A stretch of 64,000 nucleotides of DNA from the NCBI GenBank assembly GCA_041660765.1, contig JBAZVR010000003.1, positions 20,242 through 84,241 on the forward strand. Direction: 5' to 3'. Numbering within the stretch: the first letter of the stretch is position 1; each line of letters opens with the position of its first letter. Below are positions 21,634 through 41,419 of this stretch, piece after piece. Position numbers and translations under genes: made by a program. This stretch comes from Candidatus Babeliaceae bacterium. Its GTDB lineage: Bacteria; Babelota; Babeliae; Babelales; Babelaceae. The notes below the pieces were generated by a model. It was not told the DNA's origin. It searched no databases and worked only from the letters and a program-made list of their open reading frames with translations.

Positions 21634-21837
21634 TTATTTTTTCTTGCGCAACATTGGCAAGCCCGTGCGTTCATTTTCTATCACTTCATATCCCGCTGGC
21701 AGTGCATCAAGAGCGTTGCTCGCTTGTTCACCCGCAAAATAAAAAATAACTTGTTTGCGATCACCAGCTAGTTTTACTTCTTTGGAATGAAGATAATACA
21801 TTTTTCCACTTTTTTTAGATTTAACGCCATAAGCCAT
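21634..21837 (-). CDS. small conserved-looking hypothetical protein (67 aa)
   Basis: ORF directly downstream of the giant gene pair with a basic C-terminus. No family name recalled. Confidence 0.4.
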   Translation of the reverse strand: MAYGVKSKKSGKMYYLHSKEVKLAGDRKQVIFYFAGEQASNALDALPAGYEVIENERTGLPMLRKKK

Positions 21838-21916: not shown

Positions 21917-24900
21917 CTATCCGCGACCATATCTGTACCAACTATTTGCTGTTGTATTGTAATAATATGTAACCGATGCACCGTTAGCAGTTGACGAAAA
22001 GTTTGCTCCTGGATTTAATGTTGTTATAGGATTAACAATAGCTGCTCCGCCCGTACCAGCAGCATTATTGAGTGCTGTACTATTCGTAGATCCCTGCAAA
22101 ATAGTAAAAAATTGTCCATCAGTTGGGCTTGGTGGGAACGTAACCGTAAACCCAGCACCGCCTACGTTGGCAGCATTTTTTAAAATCAATATAGAGGTGC
22201 CACTTGCTGTTGTTACAGAACCACCAACGGTTGGTACTACTGATTGCAGCGCTTGATTGCATAATAAATTGGTCAAAATCAATTTTAAAATTGTTGTAAT
22301 AGCTGTTGGGCTAATATTCATCCCTTCAATGCCATTGGCATCAAGCGATAGGGTATTTGCAATTGCAGCCGAGAGCCCCGTGTTGGTACTGCCGGTAAAT
22401 TTTAATGCCGGTGATGCTGCGCTCCCTGCAGGAAGTATCAGCGTACCCGTCATCGTGTCCCCAGCTTTGAGCACATTCAGCGATGCTGCACCGGTTACAT
22501 TCCCTAGTAATGCTCCGGTAATAGTACCTGCCGAAAAATCTCCTGATGCATTTCGTAATACAATCGTGTTTGGCGTATTGGAACTTGAGATGCTCGCCAG
22601 ACTTGCGTTGCTGATAGTCCCAGGAGTAATGTCACTATTCACAATCAGCGAGCTTGATAATACACCAAGAGCACTACTATGCACTACGCCGGCTGTGCCA
22701 GTAAAATTATCAACAGTAATATTCCCACTCGAATTAATATTTATAGCCTCTGTACTATTAACATCAAAAGAAAGTGTGTTCGGTACTGGCGCAGAAAGTC
22801 CCGTGTTGGTACTTCCAGAAAATTTTAATGTCGGTGATGCTGCAGTACCTGCAGGTAACGTCAAAGCGCCAGTCATGGTGTCTCCGGCTTTAAGCACATT
22901 AAGTGCCGCAGCGCCAGAAAAACTTGCGGTAATAGTGCCTGCAGCAAAATTGCCCGATGCATCACGGGCAACAATAGCATTTGCCGTATTGGCACTGGTT
23001 GCCGTTGTTGCAGAATTTGCAACTTTGCCGGCAGTAAAAATAGTTGCAAGCTTTATGTCATCAATAGCAGCTGAATTGCTCACGTCTGCGTTAATAATTA
23101 ATGAGCTTGTTAAGTTGCCCGATACATCATTATGTACAACACCCGCAGGCGTTAAATCATTTATAGAAACGGTGCCGGCAGAAGATATTTTCATGCGTTC
23201 TAGTCCAGACGTACTCAAAGACAACGCACTACTATTTGCTGATAATCCTGTTGTCGTGCTACCGGTGAATATTAATGCAGGGGCTGCCGTTGTTCCTGCC
23301 GGTAACTGTAATGTGCCAGTCATAGAACCACCAGCTGTTGAAAGTTTGCTATCCAATTGTGCTTGGACCCCAGACGTTACGCCAGCCAAGAAATTCAATT
23401 CAGCTGCTGTCGTAGTGCTAGAAACAAGTTGACTACTGCCATCAGTTGCAACGGCTCTATTTGCAGTTAGGCCTCCAACAATAAGATTGCCATCGGTTTT
23501 TAATATTCCAGCAGCACTGCGATATACATTGGTATCTGCTGCAAATACAATTTGCGTATTTGCAGTGGGTAACTGTACTTTATTATTTACGCCATCAAGT
23601 TGCATAACCGTATATTCTGGAATAGCAATTTGACCAAAAACATCGCTATTTTGATAACTAAAAGAAAGCTCAGCGCTGGTCGCATTTTTATTGATATCCC
23701 AGCCGCGCAAAGCACCTGTAGTACCAACAGGAGATGCTGTATCAGACACCAAGCGCACGCCCGCAACTTTTGTTCTATCGGTTGTTATTGCCGTTACATC
23801 TGCACCACTATTAGATTGAACAAAAAGTGTCGATGGATTTTGTGCAGGATTTGTATAGCCCATGCCGCGAGTTGCATACAACGATGACTTGTAATTAAAA
23901 CTTGGAACATTTGCTGTAGATATAGCGGCTTCTAACAAGTTAATATTTGTATCAGATAGCGGCCCGATATTGAGTACGTTCTGAGAATCAAGATCGAAAA
24001 ATGCAAGGGTCACATTGGCGGAATTATTAATGGCAATTTTAGTACTCGAAGCAGAACTAGATGTGAATATTAACGATGATGTTCCCTGCTGTATAATATC
24101 ATTTACGCAATTTGCAATGAAAAGGCTAGACGCGGATACTTGAGTTGAAGATGTGTCTCCAGGATTGCCTATAATCAGCCCGTTTCTATAACCATTGATC
24201 TCTGAACCAGTAAGTGTAACAACTGCTTGATTAGTTATTGTCACTGCTGTCGAATTAATAGCCGGCCCGCTATAGTTGAATATGCATCCAGCGATAACGG
24301 CTGATGTTCCTGCACCAGATGCTTGAATATTAATAAGAGTTGCTGCCGTATTAATTGGGGCAAAAGAACATGCTTCTAAGGTGAGTTGCGCGCCTGTTGC
24401 AGCTATAACAGCATTAGTATTGATACTTAAAAATGTTGATCGCATAGCGAGAAGCGCATTATTACTTACCGTAAAGCCAGTTGTACATTGCGTACACAAA
24501 CCATCAGAAAATAATACCTGTGCGCCAGAACCGGTTACCGATACTCCTGTATTCGCTGGTGTTGTTGTCGGAGAGCCTTCTATCTTGCAACTGCTACATA
24601 TTAATTCAACATTATTGACATCAAGAGCCGTTCCGTTACCAACAAAAAGGCACAGATCAAATATATTGGTATTACTTGTTCCTGCGCACGACACGCCCGT
24701 ATTAAAATTAAAAATAATTACTGATGTAAAATTAGTGAGCGCGCCTGTACCGGCAAGAGAAATCGCACGCGCTGTTGATACGCCTCCTGACTGAAATGTC
24801 AGATTCAAAAATTGCACGCCAACTGTTGTAGAAATAAGATCATTGGATAATGTGTTTGGTTGTATAATTACCGTATCTGATGCATCACCCACAATTGCAA

Positions 24901-27900
24901 TACCACCTGCGGTGATAGCTATCGGCCCAGCGCTATTGTCTTCTGTATACACACCGGAGCTCATAAGAATAGCAACAGGATTAGCAGTTGATGCAAGCGT
25001 ATTTGCAACACTTACTGCTTTTGCAAGACTTGCATACGGGCTTGAAAAAGTACCGTTACCCGTGACATCATTACCCGCTTTTGTTACGTAAATAGTTCTG
25101 CTCGTTGCAGGAACAACGCTACCACCAAGAGTGAACCACTCCAATTGTGTTGGTGTTATTGCATTTGCTTGTAATACTTGTCGCGCGGTAGGCGTTGCAG
25201 CGGGCAATGACAATGTATAACTCGAAGTCACCGATGCCGGACCATTAAGCCCGACATAATTGACGCCGGCAAGATCTTGCAAACGCACGGCATTTGCATT
25301 AGCCATCGTGAGATTGCCGGTCATAGTATCACCGGCTTTGAGCACATTGAGTGATGCTGCGCCAACTAATGCTGCAGTAATAGTCCCTGCAGAAAAATTA
25401 CCAGATCCATCACGCGCAACAATGGTACCTGCCACATTAGCACCTGTTGCGTCAGTTGCTAGCGTAACATCGTCAGTATTATTAGTGATGACCATATGTG
25501 GGCCGGCTGCGAGTGTTTTGAAGTTAAGCGTATTGCCTGTTTTATCGCGGAAAATTTGTCCAGCGCCGGTGCCAACGTTTGCGCCCGTGGTTTGAGTAGC
25601 AAGAGAAAATTGTGTAAATGCTATAGGATCCGTGTCAATCACCGCCAGCGGCGTACTACACAGCCAACTTGATCCGCCATTATTTGTTCCTGATGTAATT
25701 AAGACATATGCTCGACCAGCTAACGTACCTGTTGCAAAATCTGCAGGCCGTGTCCATGCACCGGCTTGAGCAAGCCAGAGGCCGTTTTGTGTAGTAGTGC
25801 TTTGCCCGACAAGTAATACACGGTTATTAGCTGCTAATGGAACACTATCAATCGTATATAATCCCGTTATAGGAGTGTCTGTGGTGCTGACAACCAGAGC
25901 CGGTGTTTTGACAACAAAACCCAATCCTGCCACCAAATCAACATATGCTTTTGTTGCAGCATCAGTCGGATTACTTACTGTTCCATCAAGCGTGATCATA
26001 TTTGTAGCAAAATTACCTGCAAGATCACGTACCACAATATTGCCTGGAGTATCTGTGCTGGAAATTGTCGCCAGACTTGCATTACTAATAGTTCCAGGAG
26101 TAATGTCACTATTAACAATCAGCGAGCTGGTTAATACACCGAGTGCGCTATTATGTACTACGCCTGCCGTACCCGTAAAATTATTAACCGTTATATTCCC
26201 ACTTGATGCAATATTAAGTGCTTCAGTGCCATTAACATCAAAAGAAAGTGCATCTACTGTTGGAGATGAAAGCCCTGTGTTGATGCTGCCAGAAAATTTT
26301 AATGCAGGCGATGCTGCAGTGCCTGCTGGCAACGTCAACGCGCCCGTCATGGTGTCCCCAGATTTGAGCACATTAAGTGATGCCGCACCAACAAGCGTTG
26401 CCGTTATAGTGCCCGCAGAAAAATTATTAGATCCATCACGTTCAACAATAGTATTTGCACCAAGGCCACTCGTTGCTGTTGTTGCAGAATTTGCAACTTT
26501 GCCGGAACTTGAAATAGTGGCAAGCTTGCCATCTACTATTGCAGCAGAATTACTGACATCTGCATTAACAATCAGAGAGCTCGATAAATCACCCGATACA
26601 TCATTATGCACAACACCAGCAGGTGTCAGATTGTTAATAGATACTGTTCCGCCGGAAGATATTTTCATGCGTTCTAGTCCAGATGTGCTCAAAGACAAAT
26701 TGCCCAAACTTGCAGAAAGACCAGTTGTTGTGCTACCGGTAAATACTAATGCCGGGGCTGCTGTTGTCCCTGCGGGTAATTGCAACGTGCCGGTCATGGT
26801 GTCACCAGCTTTTGCAACTTTGCCATTAAGCTGCGTTTGTATATCAGATGTTGTGCCCACCAAAAAGTCTAATTCCGCCGCTGTTGTAGAGCTAGAAACT
26901 AATTGGCTGCTGCCGTTGGTTGCAACGGCTCTGTTTGCTGTTAACCCGCCAACAATCAGATTGCCATCGGTTTTGAGTGTATTTGCAGCGCCGCGATATA
27001 AATTGGTATCAGCGTCTAATACAATTTTTGTATTTACATTAGGCAATTGCACTTGGTTATTTTCTCCATCCAACTGCAAAATGGTGTACAGTGGCGTAAC
27101 ACCAAGAGCAAAAATATCACTATTTTGGTAATCAAATGCGAGCTCTGCCGTTGTTCCAATTTTATTAATATCCCATCCGCGCAGCGCAGTTGTCCCACCA
27201 ACAGGAGATGCTGTGTCAGACACCAAGCGAATGCCTGCAACTTTTGTTCTGTCCGTTGTTATTGCTGTTACATGCACATCATTATTGGCTATTGCAGATA
27301 ACGTTGATGCATTTGCGGAAGGATTTTCAAAACCAATCGACTGTGTTGAATAAATTGATGGGAAGTACACAAACTCAGGATTATTTGTTGTCCCAATAGC
27401 GGCTTGTATTAACTGGGTACGTACATTACTGAGTGACCCAATATTTAAACTGTTATTGTCATCCAAATCAAAAAAAGCTAAATCTACATTAGTCGAATTG
27501 GCGATGCTTATTTTGCTACTTGTAGCAGTGCCAGAAGTAAACACCAGCGTTGAGCTACCCTGTTGAATAATATCATTGGTACAATCTACAATAGAAAGAC
27601 TTGAAGCACTTAATTGTGTTGATAATGTATCGCCAGGATCACCAATAACAAGTGCATTTTGATAACCATTAATCTCTGAGCCGATCACCCTAAAAACTGC
27701 TTGATTGGTCACTTTTATTGCTGTTGAATTGATTGCTGGACCAACATAATTAAATATGCATCCAGCAGCAATAGCCAATGTACCTACACCAGATGCTTGA
27801 ATACTAGTAATAGTCCCCGCTGAGTTAACCGGCGCAAATGAGCATGCTTGTATATTAAGTTGCGCTCCCGTTGCAACCACTATAGCATCTGTATTAGTCG

Positions 27901-29446
27901 AAAAAGCTGTTGCTTTTCCAGCAAAATTCGCAGAATTATTTATATTAAACCCAGTAGTACACTGTACGCATAAACCATCGGCAAAGAGTACTTGAGCGCT
28001 AGCTCCGGTTGCCATTACTCCCGTATTTGCCGGTGTAGTGGTTGGGGAACCTTCTATTTTGCAGCTGCTGCATGCAACTTGTACATTATTAATATTAAGC
28101 GCCGTCCCATTTCCAATAAAAATGCACAGATCAAATGTATTGATATTATTTGTTCCCGCACATAATACACCTGTATTAAAATTCAAAAACGTTACTGATG
28201 TAAAATTACTTGTATTATTAGTGCCAGCAAGATCAACTGCCGCCGCTGTTGATACGCCACCTGACTCAAACGTCAAAGTAGAAAACTGCACGCCTTCTAT
28301 TGCAGAAATAAGATCATTGGATAATGTATTTGGTTGTATGATAACACCACTTGGTGAAGCACCAATCACCGAAATGCCATTGGCAGTAATAGCGATTGGG
28401 CCAGCGCTATTATTTTCTATATAGACGCCAGAGCTGATAAGAATAGCAACAGGGTCAGAGCTTGTTGCAAGGCCGTTTGCAACGTCAACAGCCTTATCAA
28501 GACTTGCGTATGGTGTTGCGTACGATCCATCACCTGTTACATCATTGCCAAATTTTGCAACATAAATAGATCTACTATTGACTGGTAGAACGCTCGAACC
28601 TTGAGTTACCCACTCTAAATTGGTAGGTGTTATTGAATTTGTACGTAATAATTGATGACCTATCGGCGTTGCTGATGGGAATGATAAGGTATAACTGGAT
28701 GCAACAGATGCTGGTCCATTAAGCCCAACATAATTTACCGCAGCACCATCTTGTAAGCGAATGGCATTTTGCGTAGCCATGGTAAGATTGCCGGTCATGG
28801 TATCACCAGACTTGAGCACATTCAGTGATGATGAACCAACTACGTTTGCATTAACCGTAGTTGCTGTTAAAGAATTTATTCCCGCAATATTATTACTATT
28901 ATCAAGCGTAACGTTAGATTGTTTTATATCATCTACGCCACTTAATAAATCTGTCCTCACGCGTGCATTGTCTGTGGTAAAATTTAATGCGGTTGAGACA
29001 TTCCCGCCGCCTGCAGGCGTTGCATATACCAAATTGCCAGCGCCATCACTTGCAAGAAAAGTATTAACAGCACCAACAATGCTTGGCCACGCAACGGTGT
29101 TACCATTTTTTGTAATGCCATTAAGCGTAACATTGCCGAAATTATCGATAAGTACCGAAGAATTTTCTAGCAGCGTGCCTGAAGTATCGCCAAAGCGAGG
29201 CACTGCATTAAGTGTTGATGGTGACGGGCCCGTTACCGTACCGCCGCCAACAATACTAGAGGCAATAATTTTGCCATGAACAAACAAATCACCAACAATC
29301 GATGCATTACCAAGAACCAAAAGATCTTGTGCTCGCAATCCAGTCAGCACCGTAACATGCTGAAATGTTTTGTCTTTTGGTGTTCCACACGTTGTCCATG
29401 TTGATAAAGAAAAAATTGTTAACGTTGCCAATCTCAGGTAATTCAT
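21917..29446 (-). CDS. giant (2509 aa) secreted mosaic protein with tail-fibre-like repeats and beta-helix-like modules
   Basis: Uninterrupted ORF with a signal-like N-terminus. Contains two modules starting SR.IYV.K.GNDVTG.G...PYASL.KAV.VAN (about 28590 and about 25110), GDTMTG repeats, an internal NPTDAATKAYVD knob (about 25595-25985) and a C-terminal domain ending WYRYGRG. Confidence 0.9.
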   Translation of the reverse strand: MNYLRLATLTIFSLSTWTTCGTPKDKTFQHVTVLTGLRAQDLLVLGNASIVGDLFVHGKIIASSIVGGGTVTGPSPSTLNAVPRFGDTSGTLLENSSVLIDNFGNVTLNGITKNGNTVAWPSIVGAVNTFLASDGAGNLVYATPAGGGNVSTALNFTTDNARVRTDLLSGVDDIKQSNVTLDNSNNIAGINSLTATTVNANVVGSSSLNVLKSGDTMTGNLTMATQNAIRLQDGAAVNYVGLNGPASVASSYTLSFPSATPIGHQLLRTNSITPTNLEWVTQGSSVLPVNSRSIYVAKFGNDVTGDGSYATPYASLDKAVDVANGLATSSDPVAILISSGVYIENNSAGPIAITANGISVIGASPSGVIIQPNTLSNDLISAIEGVQFSTLTFESGGVSTAAAVDLAGTNNTSNFTSVTFLNFNTGVLCAGTNNINTFDLCIFIGNGTALNINNVQVACSSCKIEGSPTTTPANTGVMATGASAQVLFADGLCVQCTTGFNINNSANFAGKATAFSTNTDAIVVATGAQLNIQACSFAPVNSAGTITSIQASGVGTLAIAAGCIFNYVGPAINSTAIKVTNQAVFRVIGSEINGYQNALVIGDPGDTLSTQLSASSLSIVDCTNDIIQQGSSTLVFTSGTATSSKISIANSTNVDLAFFDLDDNNSLNIGSLSNVRTQLIQAAIGTTNNPEFVYFPSIYSTQSIGFENPSANASTLSAIANNDVHVTAITTDRTKVAGIRLVSDTASPVGGTTALRGWDINKIGTTAELAFDYQNSDIFALGVTPLYTILQLDGENNQVQLPNVNTKIVLDADTNLYRGAANTLKTDGNLIVGGLTANRAVATNGSSQLVSSSTTAAELDFLVGTTSDIQTQLNGKVAKAGDTMTGTLQLPAGTTAAPALVFTGSTTTGLSASLGNLSLSTSGLERMKISSGGTVSINNLTPAGVVHNDVSGDLSSSLIVNADVSNSAAIVDGKLATISSSGKVANSATTATSGLGANTIVERDGSNNFSAGTITATLVGAASLNVLKSGDTMTGALTLPAGTAASPALKFSGSINTGLSSPTVDALSFDVNGTEALNIASSGNITVNNFTGTAGVVHNSALGVLTSSLIVNSDITPGTISNASLATISSTDTPGNIVVRDLAGNFATNMITLDGTVSNPTDAATKAYVDLVAGLGFVVKTPALVVSTTDTPITGLYTIDSVPLAANNRVLLVGQSTTTQNGLWLAQAGAWTRPADFATGTLAGRAYVLITSGTNNGGSSWLCSTPLAVIDTDPIAFTQFSLATQTTGANVGTGAGQIFRDKTGNTLNFKTLAAGPHMVITNNTDDVTLATDATGANVAGTIVARDGSGNFSAGTITAALVGAASLNVLKAGDTMTGNLTMANANAVRLQDLAGVNYVGLNGPASVTSSYTLSLPAATPTARQVLQANAITPTQLEWFTLGGSVVPATSRTIYVTKAGNDVTGNGTFSSPYASLAKAVSVANTLASTANPVAILMSSGVYTEDNSAGPIAITAGGIAIVGDASDTVIIQPNTLSNDLISTTVGVQFLNLTFQSGGVSTARAISLAGTGALTNFTSVIIFNFNTGVSCAGTSNTNIFDLCLFVGNGTALDVNNVELICSSCKIEGSPTTTPANTGVSVTGSGAQVLFSDGLCTQCTTGFTVSNNALLAMRSTFLSINTNAVIAATGAQLTLEACSFAPINTAATLINIQASGAGTSAVIAGCIFNYSGPAINSTAVTITNQAVVTLTGSEINGYRNGLIIGNPGDTSSTQVSASSLFIANCVNDIIQQGTSSLIFTSSSASSTKIAINNSANVTLAFFDLDSQNVLNIGPLSDTNINLLEAAISTANVPSFNYKSSLYATRGMGYTNPAQNPSTLFVQSNSGADVTAITTDRTKVAGVRLVSDTASPVGTTGALRGWDINKNATSAELSFSYQNSDVFGQIAIPEYTVMQLDGVNNKVQLPTANTQIVFAADTNVYRSAAGILKTDGNLIVGGLTANRAVATDGSSQLVSSTTTAAELNFLAGVTSGVQAQLDSKLSTAGGSMTGTLQLPAGTTAAPALIFTGSTTTGLSANSSALSLSTSGLERMKISSAGTVSINDLTPAGVVHNDVSGNLTSSLIINADVSNSAAIDDIKLATIFTAGKVANSATTATSANTANAIVARDASGNFAAGTITASFSGAAALNVLKAGDTMTGALTLPAGTAASPTLKFSGSTNTGLSAPVPNTLSFDVNSTEAININSSGNITVDNFTGTAGVVHSSALGVLSSSLIVNSDITPGTISNASLASISSSNTPNTIVLRNASGDFSAGTITGALLGNVTGAASLNVLKAGDTMTGTLILPAGSAASPALKFTGSTNTGLSAAIANTLSLDANGIEGMNISPTAITTILKLILTNLLCNQALQSVVPTVGGSVTTASGTSILILKNAANVGGAGFTVTFPPSPTDGQFFTILQGSTNSTALNNAAGTGGAAIVNPITTLNPGANFSSTANGASVTYYYNTTANSWYRYGRG
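25560..26500 (-). repeat. near-identical block shared with 34955-35895 (inter-paralog)
   Basis: Direct comparison at an offset of 9396 nt shows only scattered mismatches. One run of over 200 nt (about 26110-26335 vs 35506-35731) has a single difference. Flanking homologous sequence is visibly more diverged. Confidence 0.85.
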
Positions 29447-29449
29447 TTT

Positions 29450-32400: not shown

Positions 32401-35400
32401 TTGTTGCGGTGTTTGCTACTTTGCCGCTTGCAGAAATGGTTGCCAATTTGGTATCTGCAATCGCAGCGGCAGGATCGACGTCGGCATTAACAATTAATGA
32501 ACTGGATAAATTACCCAATGCGTCATTATGTACAACGCCCGCGGTCGTAAATGCATCAATAGAAATTGTTCCGCCGGAGGATATTTTGAGACGTTCTACA
32601 GCAGACGTGCTCAATGATAAAGCCCCTGCGCTTGCAGAAAGACCTGTCGTTGTACTGCCGGTAAATACTAATGCGGGAGCTGCTGTTGATCCTGCAGGCA
32701 ACTGCAATGTGCCGGTCATGGTGTCGCCCGCTTTTGCAACTTTACTATTCAATTGCGTTTGTACAGATGATGTTGTTCCGGCTAAAAAATCTAATTCAGC
32801 CGCTGTCGTAGTGCTAGAAACAAGTTGACTGCTGCCGTCAGTCGCAACTGCTCTATTTGGTGTAAGCCCACCAACAATAAGATTGCCATCAGTTTTGAGT
32901 GTATTTGCAGCGCCGCGATATACATTGGTGTCTGCATCTAACACAATTTTGGTACTTGCATTGGGCAGCTGCACTTGATTATTTACGCCATCTAATTGCA
33001 TGATCGTATATTCTGGAATAACAATTTGCCCAAAGCTATCACTATTTTGATAATTAAAAGAAAGCTCTGCGCTTGTTGCATTTTTGTTGATATCCCATCC
33101 ACGCAAGGCGCCTGTAGTACCAACAGGCGATGCCGTGTCAGATACTAACCGCACACCAGCAGCTTGAGTTCTGTCAGTCGTAAGCGCTGTCACATGTGCA
33201 CCACTATTAGATTCAACAAAAAGTGTTGACGATGCCGGTTGCGGATTATAAAAACCGATTGATTCCGTAGAATATAGCGATGATCTATAATTAAGTTGAG
33301 GATCGTTTGCTGTACCAATAGCTGCATGTAACAGCGTTATATCCGCATTGGTCGCTGAGCCGATATTTAAAGCATTATTATCGCTTTGATCAAAATAAGC
33401 CAAACCAACATTGGTAGGATTATTAATAATAATTTTGTTACCCGAAGCAGAACCGGCAGTAAAATTTAACGTAGCCAATGCTTGTTGCGTAATATCAGTT
33501 GTACAGTTAGTTATATACAAACTTGATGCACTCAATTGAGTTGATGCTGTATCACCTAATGTTCCAATAATCAGTGCATTTGTATAATTGTTAATTTGAT
33601 CACCAGAAACAATAACATTTGCCTGGTTAGTAACTTGTATCGCGGTTGTAGGACCAATGTCGCCAGGTGCGCCGTTGAATATACAACCAGAGAGCTTGGA
33701 ATCCGTGCCTGCCCCAGATACTTGAATTTCAACAACCGGCATAAGAGAATTTGGTTCAAATGTGCATCCTTGCACTATTAATTGTGCACTAGTTGATTGA
33801 ATAATTGAATTGCTATTAAATCTAAATGTTATAGATTGAGTTGTTACATTCATGCCATTACTTATATCAAAACCTGTTGCACAAGCTATGCACAGCCCCC
33901 CGGTAAAAAATACAAATCCTGTCCCTGTAGCAGAGATCCCAACATTAGCTGGCGTTGTAAAGGTTGTTGAACCTTCTATAATACAGTTGCTACAAATAGC
34001 TGAAGCATTATTAATAGCAAGCCCTACGCCATTAGTTATAAAAAAACAGCTTTCAAATGTATATGTGGCACTGGTTCCGCCGCAGGATACTGCCGTACCA
34101 AAATTGGTAAAATCTATATTGTTAAAAAAGGTGTTATTTCCGCTACCAGAAAGAGACACTGCGCTTGCGGTCGATATGCCTGATGCTGAAAATGAAAGAT
34201 TGAGAAATTGCGCAGAAATCGTAGTAGAAATAAGATTATTCGATAATGTATTTGGTAAAATTATAACAGAACTTGTAGATTCGCCGATAACAGAAACGCC
34301 GCCCGCTGTAATAGCAAGTGGCCCGGCACTATTGTCTTCTGTATACACACCGGAACTGATAAGAATAGCAACTGGATTAACTGCAGTTGAAATAGTATTT
34401 GCAGTAGTAATAGCTTTACTCAGGCTTGCGTAGGGATTTGAAGAAGAGCCATCGCCGGTTATATCACTACCAAACGTTGTAACGTAAATGGTGCGGCTTG
34501 TGACAGGGTTAACGCTGCCGCCGGGTGTAAACCATTCTAGCTGTGTTGGCGTTATTGCATTTGCCTGCATTACTTGATGTGCAGCAGGAGTTGTTGAGGG
34601 CAATGACAGTGTATAACTTGAAGTTACCGATGCTGGGCCATTAAGTCCAACATAATTAACGCCGGCCAAATCTTGCAAACGCACGGCATTTGATGTAGCC
34701 ATGGTGAGATTGCCGGTCATAGTATCCCCGGCTTTGAGCACATTGAGTGATGCTGCACCAATAAGCGCTGCAGTAATAGTACCCGCAGAAAAATTACCAG
34801 CATTGTCGCGTGCAACTATAGTGCCCGTTGCATTAAGATTAGTTGCATCAGTTGCTAGCGTAACATCATCTGCATTATTGGTAACAACCATATGTGTGCC
34901 GGCAGCGAGTGTTTTGAAGTTAAGCGTGTTACCCGTTTTGTCCCTAAATATTTGACCAGCGCCGGTGCCAACGTTTGCGCCCGTGGTTTGGCTAGCAAGA
35001 GAAAATTGTGTAAATGCTATAGGGTCCGTGTCAATGACCGCCAGCGGCGTACTACACAACCAACTTGATCCGCCATTATTTGTTCCTGACAATATTAAGA
35101 CATATGCTCGACCAGCTAACGTACCTGTTGCAAAATCTGCAGGCCGTGTCCATGCGCCGGCTTGAGCAAGCCAGAGGCCGTTTTGTGTAGTAGTGCTTTG
35201 TCCGACAAGTAATACACGGTCATTAGCTGCTAATGGAACACTATCAATCGTATACAAGCCCGTTATAGGAGTGTCTGTGGTGCTGACAACAAGAGCCGGT
35301 GTTTTGACAACAAAACCCAACCCTGCCACCAAATCAACATATGCTTTTGTTGCAGCATCTGTCGGATTAGTTACTGTTCCATCAAGCGTGATCATGTTGG

Positions 35401-38400
35401 TAGCAAAATTACCCGTACCGTCACGTACAACAATATTACCTGCTGTGTCTGTGCTTGATATTGTCGCCAGACTTGCATTACTAATAGTTGCAGGAGTAAT
35501 GTCACTATTAATAATCAGCGAGCTGGTTAATACACCGAGTGCGCTATTATGTACTACGCCTGCCGTACCCGTAAAATTATTAACCGTTATATTCCCACTT
35601 GATGCAATATTAAGTGCTTCAGTGCCATTAACATCAAAAGAAAGTGCATCTACTGTTGGAGACGAAAGCCCTGTGTTGATGCTGCCAGAAAATTTTAATG
35701 CAGGCGATGCTGCAGTGCCTGCTGGCAGCGTCAAAGCACCCGTCATGGTGTCCCCAGATTTGAGCACATTAAGTGATGCTGCGCCGATAAGAGTTGCGGT
35801 GATAGTGCCTGCAGAAAAATTATTAGATCCATCACGTTCAACAATAGTATTTGCGCCAAGGCCACTCGTTGCGGTTGTTGCAGAATTTGCAACTTTTCCC
35901 GCTGTAGAAATTGTTGCAAGTTTTGTGTCCACTATCGCAGCTGCTGGATCAACATCAGCATTAACAATTAATGAGCTTGTTAAGTTACCTGATACATCAT
36001 TGTGCACAATTCCAGCAGGTGTTAAGTTATTAATAGAAACCGTACCACCAGACGATATTTTCATGCGTTCTAGTCCAGATGTGCTCAAAGACAAAGCGCC
36101 CGCGCTTGCAGATAATCCCGTCGTGGTACTACCGGTAAATACTAATGTCGGAGCTGCCGTTGATCCAGCTGGCAACTGCAATGTACCGGTCATGGTGTCA
36201 CCGGCTTTTGCAACTTTACTATTCAATTGTGTTTGTATATCAGATGTTGTTCCAACCAAAAATCCTAATTCTGCTGCTGTCGTAGCACTAGAAACTAATT
36301 GACTACTGCCGTCCGTTGCAACTGCTCTATTTGCAGTTAGGCCCCCAACAATAAGATTGCCATCGGTTTTCAATGTACCTGTGGCGCCTCTATAAAGATT
36401 GGTATCTGTATCTAACACAATTTTGGTACTTGCACTGGGCAGCTGCACTTGATTATTTACGCCATCTAATTGCATGATCGTATATTCTGGAATAACGGCT
36501 TGCCCAAAACTGTCACTATTTTGATAATTAAATACAAGTTCTGCGGCAGTACCAATTTTGTTAATATCCCAACCGCGTAATGCGCCTGTAGTACCAACGG
36601 GAGATGCAGTGTCAGAAACTAATCGCACGCCAGAAGGTTGAGTTCTATCAGTTGTTATTGCTGTGAGCATTGCACCACTATTAGATTCAACAAATAATGT
36701 TGTCGAAGCTGGTGGTGGATTATAAAAACCCATTCCTCGAGTTGAATATAGAGATGATCGATAATCAAGCTGAGGATCATTGGGAAGGCCGAGAGCGGCA
36801 TGTAATAACGTAAAATTATCATTTGTTAGATTGCCGATATTCAATGCATAATTATCTTCTACGTCAAAATAGGCGAGTGCAATATTTGTAGAATCATTAA
36901 CAACAATTTTACTGCCAGTAGCAGTACCAGAACTAAATACTAAAGTTGACGTACCACGTTGCACCATGTCATTGGTACAATTTGATATCGATACACCTGA
37001 TGCATTTAATTGAGTTGATGCGGTATCGGCGGGAACACCAACAACAAAAGCATTAACATAATTATTAATCGATCCACTATCTATAACGAGTTGAGCTTGA
37101 TCAGTAACTTGAATTGCTGTTGAGGTTGTTGGAGTGCCGGTATAGTCAAATATGCAACCAGCAATAGTTGCCATAGTTCCTGCCCCAGAACTTTGAATAC
37201 TGGTGAATGGTGATGCCGAACTTGTATGAACGAATGAACATGCTTCTAACGTTAATTGTGCGCCACTCGCCTGAAAAATATCACTATTATTTAATCTAAA
37301 GGTTATTGATTTGCCACCAAACAACGCATTGCCAGCAATATTAAATGCTGTATCACATAATAAGCATAAGCCACCAGAATACAAAATTTGTGCAGCAGCA
37401 CCAGTTGCAGCTATCCCTGTATTTGCGGGCGTTGAGGTTAATGAGCCACGAATGTTACATTCACTACATTGTACTTGTGCATTATTGACATTAAGTGCTG
37501 TCCCGTTATTAACAAAAAAACAAATATCAAATAAATAAACACCATTACTGCCACCGCAAGCAACGCCGGTATTAAAATTAAAAAATGATACGGCAATAAA
37601 ATTACTCGTATTGCCACTCCCAGCAAGCGTAACGGCACTGGCAGTAGAAACACCCGTTGCCCTGAACGTAATATTTGTAAATTGTACTGCAGTTGTTGCA
37701 GAAATAAGGTCATTGGATAATGTATTTGGTCGTATTACAACGCCTGTTGGTGCGTCTCCTATAATGGAAATACCACCGGCGGTAATTGCTATCGGGCCAG
37801 CGCTATTATTTTCTGTATACACACCGGGCATTATACTAATTGCAATCGGATTTGCTGTTGTTGAAAGAGTATTGGCAACGTTTACCGCTTTAGCGAGACT
37901 TGCATATGGGGTTGCAAATGAACCATCGCCTGTCGTATCATTGCCGTATTGTGCAACATAAATAATTCTACTTGCTGCTGGAATTACGGTTCCTCCTGAT
38001 GTCACCCATTCTAAATTAGTTGGCGTTGTTGCATTCGCCCACATAACTTGGTGCGCTGTTGGTATGGTTGACGGTAGTGATAATGTATAATTTGACGCTA
38101 CCAATGCCGGTGCATTAAGCCCAACATAATTTGCGCCAGCTCCATCTTGAAACCGAACGGCATTTGCTGTAGCCATCGTAAGATTACCGGTCATCGTGTC
38201 GCCAGTTTTAAGCACGTTAAGAGACGATGCGCCCGTAACATTACCAATTAATGAAGAAGTGATTGTACCTGCTGCAAAATCACCAGATCCATCTCGTGCT
38301 ACTATTGCATTTGGTGTATCAAGACTTGTTGCTGTTGTTGCCGAATTTGCCACTTTACCGGGCGTAGAAATGGTTGCCAGTTTTACATCAGTTATAGTAC

Positions 38401-41365
38401 CATTCGTAATATCATTATTAACAATTAACGATGTTGATAATGTGCCACTTGCATCAGTATGCACAACACCAACGCTATTAAGATCATCAATTTTTACATT
38501 ACCTGCAGCATTAATATTAATCGCTTCTACACCATTGACATCAAATGATAACGTATTTGCTACAGGTGCTGAAAACCCCGTATTAGTACTGCCAGAAAAT
38601 TGCAATGATGGAGATGCAATGCTGCCTGCTGGTAACGTTAAATTGCCCGTTACCGTTCCACCACTTGATGGCAGCTTGCTATTTAGTTGTGTTTGCACCG
38701 ACGATGTTGTGCCGGATAGAAAGCCTAATTCTGTTGCTGTTGTAACGCTAGAAGCAAGCTGACTACTGCCGTCTGTTACAACTGCTTTATTAGGCGTAAG
38801 CCCGCCAACAATAAGATTCCCATCAGTTTTGAGTATACCTGCAGCACTGCGATATATATTAGTGTCTGCGTCCAAAACAATTTTTGTACCGGCGTTTGGT
38901 AATTGCACTTGGTTATTAACGCCATCAAGTTGCATAACTATATATTTTGGAATAGTAGCTTGTCCGCCTGCGGGATCATTATTTTGGTAGTTAAATGCGA
39001 GCTCTGCTGTCGTTGCATTTTTGTTAATGTCCCATCCACGCAAGGCGCCGGTGGTACCAACAGGAGATGCGGTATCAGAGGCTAATCGTACACCAACAAC
39101 TTTTGTGTAATCAGTTGTTATTGCATCTACATGTGCATCATCATTAGAGATAACTGACAATGTTGACGGATTGGCTAAAGAATTTACATAGCTAATAGCT
39201 TCAGTTGAATATAATGATGGTATATAATCAAGTTGCGGTTTATTGCCAGCTCCAATAGCTACTTGCAGAAGTGTTGTACGGGTATTACTGAGTGAACCAA
39301 TATTTAATGCATTTGCATCATCTTGATCGAAAAAGGCCAAATCAACATTGGCAGAATTGGCGATACTTATTTTATCACTAGTGGCAGAGCCGGCATTAAA
39401 ATTTAATGTTGAACTGCCCTGCTGAACAATATCATTGGTACAATTAAGGATAAACGTTCCTGATAAACTCAGTTGCGTTGATGATGTATCTGCAGGCGTG
39501 CCCACTACACACGCTGTGGTATAGTTTTCTATTTGCCCGGCAGAAACAATTGCGCTACCAGAATTTTCAACTTGCAATGCTATTGCATGAGAACTACCAA
39601 CAGAGTTGATGCCATTAAAAACACCGCCAGAAATAGTAGCTAAGCTACCAGCATCATACACTTGAATATTAGTAACAGTTCCTGTTATAGCAACCGTTTG
39701 GAAAAAGCATGACTGTGCTATTAATTGCGCGCCGGTTGTTTGTATAATACCGTTGGTATTGTTCCTAAATAAGACCGATGTTGCGTCAAAAGTTATACCA
39801 TCGCTTATAGTAAAACCCGTTATACAATTTGTACAAAGGCCTCCAGAATACAGGATTGCCCCACTGGAGCCAGTCGCCATAATCCCAGTATTTGCCGGAG
39901 TGTTTGTTAAAGAACCTTGTATGGTACAATTATTACAAACAACAATTGGATTATTAATATTTAATCCTGTTGTATTAAGTATAAAATTACACAAATCGAA
40001 TACATAGGTACTGCCTGATCCAGCGCATGATACACCGGTATTAAAATTTAAAAATCTGACGGCACTTAAGTGCGAGACGTTATTGGCGCCAGAAAGAACA
40101 ACGCCTGTCGCTGTTGATACACCGCCAGCATTAAAAGATAGATTATCAATACGCGTAGTTACTATGCATGATACAAGATCATTGGATAGCGTATTGGGAA
40201 GAATAAATACAGAATTGGTTGCTTCGCCTACAATCGAAATGCCGCCAGCGGTAACTGCAATTGGCCCTGCGCTATTATTTTCTACATAAACACCTGAATA
40301 TATAAAAATAGTAAGAGGGTTTGATGGGCTTGCTATAGTGTTTGCCAAATTGATTGCTTGAGCAAGGCTTGCAAATGGTGACGTAAGAGAACCATCGCCT
40401 GTTATATCACTGCCGTATTTTGCAACATAAATAGTTCTACTTATAGTTGGTACAACGTTTGCACCAGAAGTAAACCATTCCAAATTTGTTGGAGTAAGTG
40501 CATTAGCTCGTAATGTTTGGTTTGCTAAAGGTATTGTTGATGGCAACGACAATGTATAACTGAGTGGGACGGTTGTTGGTGCATTAAGCCCGACAAAATT
40601 TGTTCCAGCGGCCTCTTGAAACTGAACACCATTTTGCGTAGCAAATGCCAAATTGCCCGTCATGGTATCTCCAGACTTGAGAACGTTGAGTGATGCCGCT
40701 CCAGCAACATTACCTGTTACATCGCCGACAATACTGGCATTGACGGTTGCTGCTGTTAATGTATTGACATTGTCAATATTGTTAAAAGCATCAAGCGTGA
40801 CAAACGTTGATTTTATATTTCTTGGGCCGTTTGCTGGATCTGTTGTCGTCAGAGCATTATCAACAAAAAATATTGCTTGCGAAGAAACATTACCGCCTCC
40901 TATTGGTGGGGCTGGTGGCGCCGTGTATATCAAGTTACCAAAACCATCACTGGCTAAAAACGTACCTGCTCCACCAGCAATGCTGGGCCAGCTTATGGTA
41001 ATTCCATTTTTAGTAATTCCGTCAATAGTAATGTTGCCAGCATCATCGACAAGAACTGATGAATCTTTAATAACCGTACCAGATGTATCTGCAAAACGTG
41101 GCACTGCATTGAGAGTAGATGATGCCGGCCCCTGAACATTACCGCTGCCACCGCCGCTGCTACCGCTAGCACTAATAATTGAATTGGCAATAATATGATT
41201 AACATACAGGGTATTGCCGATGGTGGCATTGCCAGGGATAAAAAGATCTTGCGCTCGCAATCCAGTAATTACATTAACGTGTTGAAATGTTTTATCTGTG
41301 GCTGTTCTACCAAATAAAGATAATGGTAAAAAAACAGCGAATGCTAATATTCTTATACGATACAT
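29450..41365 (-). CDS. giant (about 3971 aa) secreted mosaic protein with tail-fibre-like repeats and beta-helix-like modules, paralog of 21917..29446
   Basis: ORF 29450..41383. ATG 41365 is preceded by AAGGATGG and gives the signal peptide MYRIRILAFAVFLPLSLFG. Contains three beta-helix-like modules (starting at about 40440, 37975 and 34505), an internal knob (about 34990-35375), a long GDTMTG repeat array and a C-terminal domain ending WYRIGRG. Confidence 0.9.
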   Translation of the reverse strand: MYRIRILAFAVFLPLSLFGRTATDKTFQHVNVITGLRAQDLFIPGNATIGNTLYVNHIIANSIISASGSSGGGSGNVQGPASSTLNAVPRFADTSGTVIKDSSVLVDDAGNITIDGITKNGITISWPSIAGGAGTFLASDGFGNLIYTAPPAPPIGGGNVSSQAIFFVDNALTTTDPANGPRNIKSTFVTLDAFNNIDNVNTLTAATVNASIVGDVTGNVAGAASLNVLKSGDTMTGNLAFATQNGVQFQEAAGTNFVGLNAPTTVPLSYTLSLPSTIPLANQTLRANALTPTNLEWFTSGANVVPTISRTIYVAKYGSDITGDGSLTSPFASLAQAINLANTIASPSNPLTIFIYSGVYVENNSAGPIAVTAGGISIVGEATNSVFILPNTLSNDLVSCIVTTRIDNLSFNAGGVSTATGVVLSGANNVSHLSAVRFLNFNTGVSCAGSGSTYVFDLCNFILNTTGLNINNPIVVCNNCTIQGSLTNTPANTGIMATGSSGAILYSGGLCTNCITGFTISDGITFDATSVLFRNNTNGIIQTTGAQLIAQSCFFQTVAITGTVTNIQVYDAGSLATISGGVFNGINSVGSSHAIALQVENSGSAIVSAGQIENYTTACVVGTPADTSSTQLSLSGTFILNCTNDIVQQGSSTLNFNAGSATSDKISIANSANVDLAFFDQDDANALNIGSLSNTRTTLLQVAIGAGNKPQLDYIPSLYSTEAISYVNSLANPSTLSVISNDDAHVDAITTDYTKVVGVRLASDTASPVGTTGALRGWDINKNATTAELAFNYQNNDPAGGQATIPKYIVMQLDGVNNQVQLPNAGTKIVLDADTNIYRSAAGILKTDGNLIVGGLTPNKAVVTDGSSQLASSVTTATELGFLSGTTSSVQTQLNSKLPSSGGTVTGNLTLPAGSIASPSLQFSGSTNTGFSAPVANTLSFDVNGVEAININAAGNVKIDDLNSVGVVHTDASGTLSTSLIVNNDITNGTITDVKLATISTPGKVANSATTATSLDTPNAIVARDGSGDFAAGTITSSLIGNVTGASSLNVLKTGDTMTGNLTMATANAVRFQDGAGANYVGLNAPALVASNYTLSLPSTIPTAHQVMWANATTPTNLEWVTSGGTVIPAASRIIYVAQYGNDTTGDGSFATPYASLAKAVNVANTLSTTANPIAISIMPGVYTENNSAGPIAITAGGISIIGDAPTGVVIRPNTLSNDLISATTAVQFTNITFRATGVSTASAVTLAGSGNTSNFIAVSFFNFNTGVACGGSNGVYLFDICFFVNNGTALNVNNAQVQCSECNIRGSLTSTPANTGIAATGAAAQILYSGGLCLLCDTAFNIAGNALFGGKSITFRLNNSDIFQASGAQLTLEACSFVHTSSASPFTSIQSSGAGTMATIAGCIFDYTGTPTTSTAIQVTDQAQLVIDSGSINNYVNAFVVGVPADTASTQLNASGVSISNCTNDMVQRGTSTLVFSSGTATGSKIVVNDSTNIALAYFDVEDNYALNIGNLTNDNFTLLHAALGLPNDPQLDYRSSLYSTRGMGFYNPPPASTTLFVESNSGAMLTAITTDRTQPSGVRLVSDTASPVGTTGALRGWDINKIGTAAELVFNYQNSDSFGQAVIPEYTIMQLDGVNNQVQLPSASTKIVLDTDTNLYRGATGTLKTDGNLIVGGLTANRAVATDGSSQLVSSATTAAELGFLVGTTSDIQTQLNSKVAKAGDTMTGTLQLPAGSTAAPTLVFTGSTTTGLSASAGALSLSTSGLERMKISSGGTVSINNLTPAGIVHNDVSGNLTSSLIVNADVDPAAAIVDTKLATISTAGKVANSATTATSGLGANTIVERDGSNNFSAGTITATLIGAASLNVLKSGDTMTGALTLPAGTAASPALKFSGSINTGLSSPTVDALSFDVNGTEALNIASSGNITVNNFTGTAGVVHNSALGVLTSSLIINSDITPATISNASLATISSTDTAGNIVVRDGTGNFATNMITLDGTVTNPTDAATKAYVDLVAGLGFVVKTPALVVSTTDTPITGLYTIDSVPLAANDRVLLVGQSTTTQNGLWLAQAGAWTRPADFATGTLAGRAYVLILSGTNNGGSSWLCSTPLAVIDTDPIAFTQFSLASQTTGANVGTGAGQIFRDKTGNTLNFKTLAAGTHMVVTNNADDVTLATDATNLNATGTIVARDNAGNFSAGTITAALIGAASLNVLKAGDTMTGNLTMATSNAVRLQDLAGVNYVGLNGPASVTSSYTLSLPSTTPAAHQVMQANAITPTQLEWFTPGGSVNPVTSRTIYVTTFGSDITGDGSSSNPYASLSKAITTANTISTAVNPVAILISSGVYTEDNSAGPLAITAGGVSVIGESTSSVIILPNTLSNNLISTTISAQFLNLSFSASGISTASAVSLSGSGNNTFFNNIDFTNFGTAVSCGGTSATYTFESCFFITNGVGLAINNASAICSNCIIEGSTTFTTPANVGISATGTGFVFFTGGLCIACATGFDISNGMNVTTQSITFRFNSNSIIQSTSAQLIVQGCTFEPNSLMPVVEIQVSGAGTDSKLSGCIFNGAPGDIGPTTAIQVTNQANVIVSGDQINNYTNALIIGTLGDTASTQLSASSLYITNCTTDITQQALATLNFTAGSASGNKIIINNPTNVGLAYFDQSDNNALNIGSATNADITLLHAAIGTANDPQLNYRSSLYSTESIGFYNPQPASSTLFVESNSGAHVTALTTDRTQAAGVRLVSDTASPVGTTGALRGWDINKNATSAELSFNYQNSDSFGQIVIPEYTIMQLDGVNNQVQLPNASTKIVLDADTNVYRGAANTLKTDGNLIVGGLTPNRAVATDGSSQLVSSTTTAAELDFLAGTTSSVQTQLNSKVAKAGDTMTGTLQLPAGSTAAPALVFTGSTTTGLSASAGALSLSTSAVERLKISSGGTISIDAFTTAGVVHNDALGNLSSSLIVNADVDPAAAIADTKLATISASGKVANTATTATNTNTPNTIVLRDGSGNFSAGTITANLIGNVIGNISPTGTFTVQAGTRAVPSIQFTGSTNTGFSAPEPNTLSFDINGIEAINISSSRGVLIDNFTGTAGIVHNDALGNLSSSLIVDADVSPSAAITDNKLATISTPGKVANSATTATSANLPNTIVLRDASGNFSAGTITAGLIGNVLGNVTGSASLNVLKSGDTMTGNLTLPAGTRAVPSLQFSGGTNTGLSSPSANTLSFDINGVEAINISSSRGVLIDNFTGTAGIVHNDALGNLSSSLIVNADVSPSAAITDDKLATISTSGKVANSATTATSVNLPNTIVLRDASGNFSAGTITAAFSGTVTGNVIGSASLNVLKAGDTMTGTLQLPAGSTAAPALVFTGSTTTGLSASTGNLSLSTSAVERLKISSSGTVTITGLTPAGVVHNDVSGNLSSSLIINADVDPAAAIIDTKLATISTAGKVANTATTATALDTAGAIVARDASGNFAAGTITAGLIGNVTGSASLNVLKSGDTMTGNLTLPAGTNISPSLKFSGSTNTGLSSPVANTLSLSINGTEAINIASSGNILIDNFTGTAGIVHNSALGLLTSSLIVDADVSPSAGIVDTKLATILTPGKVGNSATTATGANSSNTIVARDNLGNFAASTITANLLGNVTGSASLNVLKAGDTMTGTLTHPAGTRAAPSIQFTGSTNTGFSSPSANTLSFDVNGTEAINISSSGGILIDNFTGTAGVVHNSALGLLTSSLIVNSDITPGTISNASLASISSANTPNTIVLRDASGDFSAGTITAALIGNVTGAASLNVLKAGDTMTGSLVLPAGTAAVPALQFTGSTNTGFSAPTANTLSFDTNGAERMSVSSGSILMPTPLVTTNVRRDQAIQSATPTVGGSVTTLSTTSILILKNVVNVGGAGFTVRFPPSPIDGQFFTIVQGSTNSTTLVNTGGTGGAAIVNPVNSLAPGSNFTSSTNGAAVTYYYNATANTWYRIGRG
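29830..32860 (-). repeat. tandem coding repeat array, unit about 477 nt (159 aa), about 6-7 units
   Basis: Unit: SLNVLK.GDTMTG.L.LPAG....P.L.F.GS.NTG.S.P..NTLSF..NG.EAINI.SSG...ID.FTGTAG.VHN.ALG.L.SSLIV.ADV.P.A.I.D.KLATIS..GKVAN.ATTAT......IV.RDASGNF.AGTITA. Copies at about 31540-31725 and 32017-32202 are nearly identical. Confidence 0.85.
34955..35895 (-). repeat. near-identical block shared with 25560-26500 (inter-paralog)
   Basis: See the partner entry. Encodes the tail-fibre-tip-like knob and the adjacent GDTMTG repeat. Confidence 0.85.
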
Positions 41366-41419
41366 AGGCAAACCATCCTTCAATCTTGTACTACTTAATA
41401 TCTTCTTAAGGTTATTTAG

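Follow-up and report, generated by a model that had tools for sequence, protein, structure and literature searches.

Two giant modular genes in tandem

We analysed a stretch of 64,000 nucleotides (hereafter the window) of contig JBAZVR010000003.1, which belongs to a metagenome-assembled genome (MAG) of a Candidatus Babeliaceae bacterium (Dependentiae/TM6). The Dependentiae are widespread, live as obligate parasites or symbionts of protists, and count only a handful of isolates. Two co-directional genes of the window, which we call A and B, encode giant proteins assembled from modules of phage tail-fibre and tailspike type, and we interpret them as candidate host-attachment fibres. Both lie on the minus strand and together they take up 19,467 nt, i.e. 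30.4% of the window according to the list of open reading frames (ORFs). Gene A (21917..29446) encodes 2509 amino acids (aa) and gene B (29450..41365) encodes 3971 aa. The called proteins are 100% identical to GenBank entries MFA6066703.1 and MFA6066704.1, which belong to a MAG contig 113,280 bp long and are labelled 'hypothetical protein [Candidatus Babeliaceae bacterium]'. The ORF of gene B extends to 41383 (29450..41383, minus strand) and has 3977 aa if counted from a TTG codon. Its true start is most likely the ATG at 41365, which has AAGGA just 5' of it and yields the 3971 aa of the GenBank annotation; the residue positions given below for the modules of protein B run to 3977. A first-pass annotation, made from the letters of the sequence, had described two co-directional ORFs of 2509 and about 3971 codons covering about 30% of the window. 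Coordinates and length of B agree with this description, to which the minus strand can now be added.

The ATG of gene A lies 3 nt past the stop codon of gene B and directly behind GGAGAGGA, which makes translational coupling within an operon likely. From this arrangement A and B probably form a single operon. Scans for promoters and terminators around it were uninformative. Long antisense ORFs of up to 1007 aa occur inside the two genes (29805-32828, 25797-27131, 22257-23432 and 35193-36302, all on the plus strand) and recur alongside the repeats. Most likely they are not genes and simply reflect the biased codon composition (Thr/Ala/Ser/Gly).

We mapped the modules of both proteins using motif positions and hidden Markov models (HMMs) built from the window's own modules. 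All coordinates that follow are on the minus strand, and the segments were delimited by HMM unless stated otherwise. Protein A starts with a signal-like peptide, MNYLRLATLTIFSLSTWTTCGTP (29378..29446), read by eye from the sequence. It is followed by a conserved N-terminal domain (aa 21-213, 28808..29386; alignment and HMM), an adaptor, and a first beta-helix module (aa 285-860, 26867..28594), which is the copy that we modelled and searched with AlphaFold2 and Foldseek. Then come two fibre units (25970..26833), a knob (aa 1151-1330, 25457..25996; also supported by phage and PDB homology), a further adaptor and a second beta-helix module (aa 1443-2018, 23393..25120). The protein ends with a distal shaft of two full and one partial fibre units (22292..23359) and a C-terminal tip domain of 124 aa (aa 2386-2509, 21920..22291; HMM and model).

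Protein B begins and ends as A does and has three beta-helix modules, one knob and nine full units. Its signal-like peptide, MYRIRILAFAVFLPLSLFGRTAT (41297..41365, again read by eye), precedes the conserved N-terminal domain (aa 26-229, 40697..41308; alignment and HMM), a putative envelope-proximal base. The first beta-helix module (aa 309-887, 38723..40459; HMM and model) comprises a cap, a right-handed beta-helix and a post-helix domain. It is separated by one fibre unit (38231..38689) from the second (aa 1132-1707, 36263..37990). Two more units (35366..36229) lead to the knob (aa 1998-2177, 34853..35392; HMM, phage and PDB homology), which is of the phage tail-fibre or head-decoration type, and the third beta-helix module lies at aa 2290-2865 (32789..34516). 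The distal shaft has six full and one partial units of 153 aa (29825..32755; HMM and PHROG), and the C-terminal tip, again of 124 aa (aa 3854-3977, 29453..29824; HMM and model), is a predicted beta-sandwich.

These maps agree with the two beta-helix modules in the first gene and three in the second that had been counted by eye, with a module length of about 576 aa. They also recover the shared N-terminal region behind the signal-like peptide, where A (21-213) and B (26-229) are 55% identical. The units carrying the GDTMTG motif, previously given as 150-160 aa long, measure 141-159 aa; four full ones are found in A and nine in B, besides partial adaptor units. In both proteins, Thr, Ala, Ser, Gly and Asn are very abundant and charges are few. 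Cysteines are nearly absent except in the beta-helix modules, each of which has nine at conserved positions, as expected for a stabilised extracytoplasmic fold. We identified no transmembrane segment in A or B beyond the signal peptide.

The two proteins align over about 2500 aa at 65% identity, their fibre units are mutually 60-83% identical, and a super-repeat of 1158 aa (3474 nt) is present in both genes. Repeat copies have DNA identities of 60-80% nearly throughout. A tract of about 900 nt, covering aa 985-1285 of A and aa 1832-2132 of B (25592..26494 and 34988..35890, minus strand), is 93-99% identical. It spans one fibre unit and most of the knob, and synonymous sites match equally well, which indicates recent gene conversion between A and B, at least by this pattern of identity. 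The idea of repeated duplication and fusion put forward in the first-pass annotation gains from both the super-repeat and this tract. Divergence between copies is uneven along the modules: the beta-helix bodies are the most diverged, with 39-68% aa identity, and connectors, units and knob are 75-100% identical. As copies are mostly only 60-80% identical in DNA, repeat collapse or chimerism is unlikely, except in the tract of about 900 nt, the sole place in A and B where a short-read assembly could be ambiguous. The divergence of the copies speaks against the genes being assembly chimeras, as do intact giant ORFs of equal or greater size in relatives with chromosome-level MAGs, and we reject this reading.

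Folds and homologues of the modules

The beta-helix modules had been likened, on the look of their short stacked segments, to pectate lyases and tailspikes. We built an AlphaFold2 monomer model of residues 207-860 of protein A, with an alignment of the five copies of the window and eight homologues. Its core (model residues ~110-440, about 330 residues) has three strands per turn and a predicted local distance difference test (pLDDT) score mostly above 90. Foldseek searches with the module returned 55 matches in the PDB and 219 in BFVD at E ≤ 1e-3, with best values down to 1e-6 and 5e-12, respectively. The leading PDB matches are a GH87 alpha-1,3-glucanase, the phi29 gp12 appendage, the AlgE4 epimerase and the tailspikes of P22, HK620 and CBA120; the module matches phi29 gp12 with a template modelling (TM) score of 0.43 and a root-mean-square deviation of 4.7 Å. 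The 219 matches among viral predicted structures are mostly tailspikes of the pectate-lyase superfamily. Pectin methylesterase and PfbA, a non-catalytic beta-helix adhesin, are also among the fold matches. Model and fold searches thus confirm the initial impression: the core of the module is, as predicted, a right-handed parallel beta-helix of the tailspike or pectate-lyase kind.

Sequence searches do not reveal this relationship. Neither giant protein has a Pfam family at E ≤ 0.1, Beta_helix and Pectate_lyase_3 included, and a profile search of PDB sequences with the beta-helix module gave nothing at E ≤ 1. The first-pass annotation had proposed to run the separate modules against Pfam, and none of them is recognised. 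This invisibility explains why the genes are currently annotated as hypothetical proteins.

A fold shared with so many carbohydrate-active proteins raises the question of catalysis. The proteins could be mainly enzymes, i.e. beta-helix depolymerases that digest the glycocalyx, cyst wall, food-vacuole contents or a competing biofilm, with the fibre parts acting as spacers. The top fold matches are catalytic (GH87, alginate epimerase and lyases, tailspike depolymerases, pectin methylesterase), and a 'GxYxENNSAGP' motif with an invariant Glu is kept at the first helix turns. Active sites of tailspikes and lyases normally lie in the central helix turns. There, between model residues 139 and 399, none of the acidic columns is conserved in at least 75% of the 13 family sequences, and the residues that are conserved (Gly, Phe, Asn and Cys) look structural. 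A family-wide catalytic site, and with it an enzymatic activity, is thus unsupported, while catalytic sites specific to single copies of the module may still exist. Moreover, catalytic motifs cannot be transferred from relatives since none is found in Pfam or among PDB sequences, the match to PfbA illustrates that such helices can be non-catalytic, and binding and cleavage are not exclusive. Hence, we regard a mainly enzymatic role as unlikely.

The remaining modules resemble parts of phage virions. The fibre units match PHROG 5342, 'tail fiber protein', with E-values of 2e-41 for A (five stretches) and 2e-73 for B (nine stretches), as well as tail-fibre genes of T4-like cyanophages. These matches bear out the assignment of the GDTMTG units to the phage tail-fibre type. 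Searches of Pfam with 13 isolated units, including against PF03406 (Phage tail fibre repeat), gave no match at E ≤ 10; the GDTMTG motif is visible by eye. The knob matches the 'capsid decoration protein' of PDB entry 9nx3 (6e-8) and 316 phage records, described as tail fibre, head decoration or structural protein, with E-values down to 3e-19. An internal knob resembling phage tail-fibre tip domains had been noticed before, and these matches show it to be homologous to a domain that occurs in tail-fibre and head-decoration proteins of phages. The C-terminal tip is modelled as a small beta-sandwich with a pLDDT of 73 overall and of about 80-89 within the domain. Profile searches of PDB sequences with the unit, the N-terminal domain and the tip gave nothing significant. 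At the other end, the signal-like peptides of A, B and their relatives are hydrophobic n-h-c segments, judged by eye, that end before P..K.F.N. The N-terminal domain (about 190 aa) recurs behind them at residues ~30-240 of the relatives.

Genomic context and extent of the family

The genes found around A and B are those of a bacterial chromosome. The window encodes ThyX, SecF, Rho, TsaD, ArfB, MutL, PrmC, FtsY and an FKBP isomerase, and further a PEBP protein, a DAO oxidoreductase, two ankyrin-repeat proteins and a PilN-like protein. We found no tRNA, no integrase and no phage structural gene (capsid, sheath, tube, baseplate) in its 64 kb. The G+C content (GC) is 0.41-0.44 across the A/B region and 0.35-0.40 in the flanks. 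The GC of third codon positions (GC3) is 0.28-0.30 in A and B, equal to that of the housekeeping neighbours. The GC excess sits wholly at codon position 2, reflecting the abundance of Thr, Ala, Ser and Gly in the proteins. Since their GC3 is that of housekeeping genes, A and B are, on compositional and positional grounds, native chromosomal genes of Candidatus Babeliaceae. On account of the housekeeping flanks and GC3 we reject a prophage. This matches the earlier view that A and B, having no phage genes nearby, are cellular, a view to which we can add that the family is present in the chromosomes of many Dependentiae genomes.

The same data bear on a broader alternative, in which the pair is a prophage or virus-derived remnant, or a mis-assembled chimera, without current function. 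It is true that the modules are homologous to phage proteins, that GC is higher in the region than in its flanks and that one homologue lies on a giant-virus contig (see below). However, a reduced genome has kept ORFs of 7.5 and 11.9 kb intact, GC3 is as in housekeeping genes with the GC excess coming from codon position 2, the family is kept across many genomes including chromosome-level assemblies, and the repeat copies are too diverged for chimeras. This alternative is largely refuted and we give it hardly any credence.

Several other genes of the window deserve mention. An ORF of 1851 aa (13485-19040, minus strand), just downstream of the DAO and PEBP genes, matches no Pfam family and no fibre-module HMM; it may encode another large effector or surface protein. 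Two tandem ankyrin-repeat proteins of 613 and 696 aa (8003-9844 and 9875-11965, plus strand) fit an origin in Dependentiae, as bacteria associated with amoebae, Babela among them, typically have expanded sets of ankyrin proteins. At a distance of 3.8 kb upstream of the operon are the PilN-like protein (PF05137, 1e-5; 45163-45768, minus strand) and an overlapping unannotated ORF (45686-46237, minus strand), which may belong to a type IV pilus or to an apparatus like the type II secretion system; such an apparatus could be relevant to fibre export. Finally, a small ORF of 67 aa (21634-21836, minus strand), beginning MAYGVKSKKSGKMYYLHSKEV, sits in the gap that separates the end of gene A from the PEBP gene.

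We searched for relatives with a pattern-limited scan of 185,579 species genomes. Full-length matches to the beta-helix module were found at about 35 loci. The MAGs concerned are labelled candidate division TM6, Candidatus Dependentiae, Babeliales or Babeliaceae, and many other loci lie on chromosomes of 1.1-1.5 Mb from an 'uncultured bacterium'. Three module-bearing MAGs have the (unverified) label 'uncultured Pseudomonadota'. Loci in such third-party annotation (TPA) bins (L005, L010, L013 and L035) are among the closest homologues of the module, at about 50% identity. Either these labels are wrong or the family reaches beyond Dependentiae. MAGs of Bdellovibrio were matched by the GDTMTG adaptor part only. 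When the related loci were scanned with the module HMMs, the same modules appeared in shuffled order, in ORFs of up to 6529 aa that are frequently in tandem. A search for syntenic giant genes had been suggested at the outset, and it thus returned the same module set in giant, often tandem, ORFs of Dependentiae. Synteny of the flanks of the window with those of the related loci is essentially absent. Where related loci overlap, they imply clusters of 40-54 kb, i.e. 3-4% of the genome.

An exhaustive profile search with the module against 1.84 billion cluster representatives gave 208 protein clusters at E ≤ 1e-30, or 558 if matches up to E ≤ 1e-10 are counted. The proteins are often giants of 2-7.5 thousand aa, the longest having 7500 aa. 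A word-indexed protein search under-reported the family, with eight matches for the module and two for the tip. Judging from these homologues, A and B are one instance of a large Dependentiae-centred family that is found almost only in this phylum. In two of the related loci, L001 and L006 (CAWIZM010000002.1), the fibre genes are split into many overlapping ORFs in different frames. These look like indel errors of long-read assembly and not like real pseudogenes, which explains the short proteins with garbled ends (P0004 and P0006). Clusters in related Dependentiae MAGs also contain fibre genes that end in Peptidase_S74 (L001:2162-2896, L002:7022-9916 and L002:14112-19647). Pfam detects no such domain in A or B, and the window has no gene of this kind.

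Given this vocabulary of modules, the proteins might serve as fibres on a tail-like particle whose genes lie elsewhere in the genome: an extracellular contractile injection system, an array like the type VI secretion system of Amoebophilus (T6SS-iv), a tailocin or a gene-transfer agent. Each of the building blocks is indeed a phage virion part, and the Peptidase_S74 fibre genes stand alongside in related loci. Yet Pfam finds no sheath, tube, baseplate or capsid in the 64-kb window or in the flanks of two related loci. The Sec-type signal peptides of A, B and their relatives do not fit cytoplasmic assembly, and proteins of 2.5-7.5 thousand amino acids in arrays of many paralogues are unlike known particle fibres. 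We therefore consider this origin highly unlikely.

The only relative in IMG/VR lies on a contig of 5.9 kb (L064, IMGVR_UViG_GVMAG-M-3300023174-150_000001; GC 0.31) from a giant-virus MAG. It is an ORF of 691 aa (L064:3818-5893, plus strand) with 34% identity, lacking a signal peptide and running off the contig end. Its alignment covers the second half of the N-terminal domain, the adaptor and the beta-helix and reaches into the post-helix domain. Its neighbour on the minus strand (L064:2367-3752) matches the poxvirus-type poly(A) polymerase regulatory subunit (Pfam PF01358, 8e-23), which favours a real giant-virus origin over mis-binning. We searched for further giant-virus homologues, and this contig remains the single case. 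The alignment suggests that Dependentiae and giant viruses may share a fibre cassette.

A candidate fibre for host attachment

The closest known system is the mosaic adhesive trimer (MAT) family of Bdellovibrio bacteriovorus, whose 21 members are trimeric adhesins that resemble phage fibres and are displayed on the cell surface (Caulton et al. 2024, PMC10769870). In each MAT a signal peptide is followed by a beta-rich N-terminal domain (about 130 aa) that all of them share, whereas the tip varies (S74 or another domain); one MAT binds prey glycans (PMC10769870). The likeness to A, B and their family is considerable. Both sets of proteins are encoded by the cell and combine a signal peptide, a lineage-specific N-terminal domain, a phage-fibre-like shaft and a variable distal part. 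Both form many mosaic paralogues per genome, in bacteria that must recognise and enter another cell, and the S74-terminated fibre genes of the related Dependentiae loci parallel the S74 group of MATs. MAT-like proteins of Bdellovibrio MAGs share 36-50% identity with the shaft and adaptor of A and B over about 50-150 aa (mostly 50-90). The N-terminal domains, in contrast, are unrelated: when we compared the Dependentiae profile with that of MAT-like proteins from Bdellovibrio MAGs using hhalign, the probability was 1.4% and only the signal peptides aligned. Strict membership of the MAT superfamily is thus rejected. The systems also differ in architecture, since MATs have about 600-1200 aa and one tip, whereas members of the A/B family have 2.5-7.5 thousand amino acids and two to five single-chain tailspike beta-helices and knobs in series. 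Finally, MATs target Gram-negative prey and A and B would target a eukaryotic host.

Taking these data together, we think that A and B are fairly likely to be exported, envelope-held and probably trimeric giant surface fibres, which bind host glycans and thereby serve attachment to, or uptake by, protists. What we infer is surface display, host attachment and glycan degradation. In a plausible sequence of events, each protein would first be exported by Sec through its N-terminal signal peptide, the pattern of which is seen in the sequence. The lineage-specific N-terminal domain of about 190 aa would then hold the fibre at the cell envelope; it is proposed as the anchor by analogy with the N-terminal domain of Bdellovibrio MATs and with the virion-attachment ends of phage fibres. 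The chain would trimerise into a long fibre, in which thin shafts of 153-aa units alternate with thick beta-helix modules and the knob, with the beta-sandwich tip at the end. The beta-helix bodies, being the part that diverges most between copies, are read as glycan-recognition surfaces of differing specificity. Placed in series, and possibly able to cleave glycans, they would make a polyvalent, multi-tailspike fibre. Long tail fibres of T4 measure roughly 0.05 nm per residue. By this scaling the fibres would be roughly 130 and 200 nm long. Their most likely role would be the binding of glycans on the host-cell surface, leading to attachment to and uptake by the protist. Module duplication, shuffling and gene conversion would diversify the repertoire.

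Surface proteins of this size could instead form a protective or camouflage coat, similar to an S-layer or a glycocalyx, that provides shielding, phagosome resistance or a decoy and not specific host recognition. The composition described above and the few charges would suit a coat, as would huge proteins with many paralogues per genome, and a 'coat' role has been proposed for the giant ORFs of Velamenicoccus (PMC10066038). Against this, the polarity from base to shaft to tip, the conserved base, the variable helix bodies and the ancestry in phage receptor-binding proteins fit directional adhesins better, and no self-assembly or lattice domain is recognised. We regard a coat as rather improbable, and retain host-attachment fibres as the preferred interpretation.

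Several observations weigh against attachment fibres. The first-pass annotation had proposed a receptor-binding tip in the C-terminal ~120 aa. A domain of 124 aa is indeed present in both proteins, but the fold matches of this putative tip, with the spike of a phage capsid and the tip of a tail fibre, are weak (Foldseek E-values of 1e-3 to 8e-3). The post-helix region of about 210 aa (AITTDRT...LRGWDINK...KTDGNLIVGGLT), the adaptor and the shaft have a pLDDT below 50 when modelled as a monomer. This is as expected for intertwined oligomeric parts, with which the model is compatible, and is no proof of them. Crossing of the outer membrane is a further difficulty, as we identified neither an outer-membrane anchor nor a dedicated secretion gene adjoining A and B. 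The option of glycan cleavage is weakened by the lack of conserved acidic columns noted above. The cultured Dependentiae species were not returned by the pattern-limited genome scan, so some members of the phylum may lack the family. Lastly, surface fibres are not mentioned in the Dependentiae genome papers (PMC6561590, PMC4776705, PMC4378268). Full-text literature searches for fibres, tail fibres and giant proteins in Dependentiae likewise found no description. A stronger version of the hypothesis sees here a previously undescribed, phylum-wide organelle, made of polyvalent multi-tailspike fibres that take 3-4% of the genome, decide uptake by protists and share a cassette with a giant virus. 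It is conceivable, and we hold it as doubtful.

Comparisons with other systems delimit what is particular to these proteins. Phage tailspikes and appendages (P22, HK620, CBA120, phi29 gp12, and the depolymerases of Klebsiella and Acinetobacter phages) have the same core fold, an N-terminal cap with a motif of the type 'IYV..G.D..GDGS..PY.sl..A', and likely a trimer-dependent downstream domain. Sequence identity with them is only 8-15%, and in contrast to them A and B are not virion parts, have several helices per chain and have no conserved catalytic acids. Phage long tail fibres (PHROG 5342, T4-like cyanophages) and decoration or spike proteins (PDB 9nx3 and 9ny6) are homologous to the units and the knob and weakly resemble the tip; A and B differ from the long tail fibres in being chromosomal, far larger and provided with a signal peptide. 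Giant ORFs that are presumed to be adhesins recur in reduced genomes of host-dependent lineages, such as Omnitrophota (Velamenicoccus), Patescibacteria and Nanohaloarchaeota (PMC10066038). Those ORFs carry discoidin, laminin-G and dockerin domains and transmembrane helices, whereas A and B are made of phage fibre and tailspike modules. One family member (P0020) has been automatically annotated by the Joint Genome Institute (JGI) as a 'trimeric autotransporter adhesin'. We reject this label, because Pfam detects no C-terminal anchor of the YadA type and the C-terminus of A and B is a soluble-looking beta-sandwich.

The concatenation of several tailspike-type beta-helices in one chain, of up to 7500 aa, is new. 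The family also extends a known phenomenon, the domestication by cells of phage receptor-binding hardware, from Bdellovibrio to a second, unrelated host-dependent phylum, one that targets eukaryotes. Host recognition and entry are left unexplained in the Dependentiae genome papers cited above, and this family provides a concrete and testable candidate for that step; its members are the best candidates for the means by which these bacteria grip their hosts. If so, the repertoire of paralogues could predict host range. If the cassette found in the giant virus is confirmed, it would imply that intracellular bacteria and giant viruses sharing the same hosts exchange fibres for attachment or for the triggering of phagocytosis.

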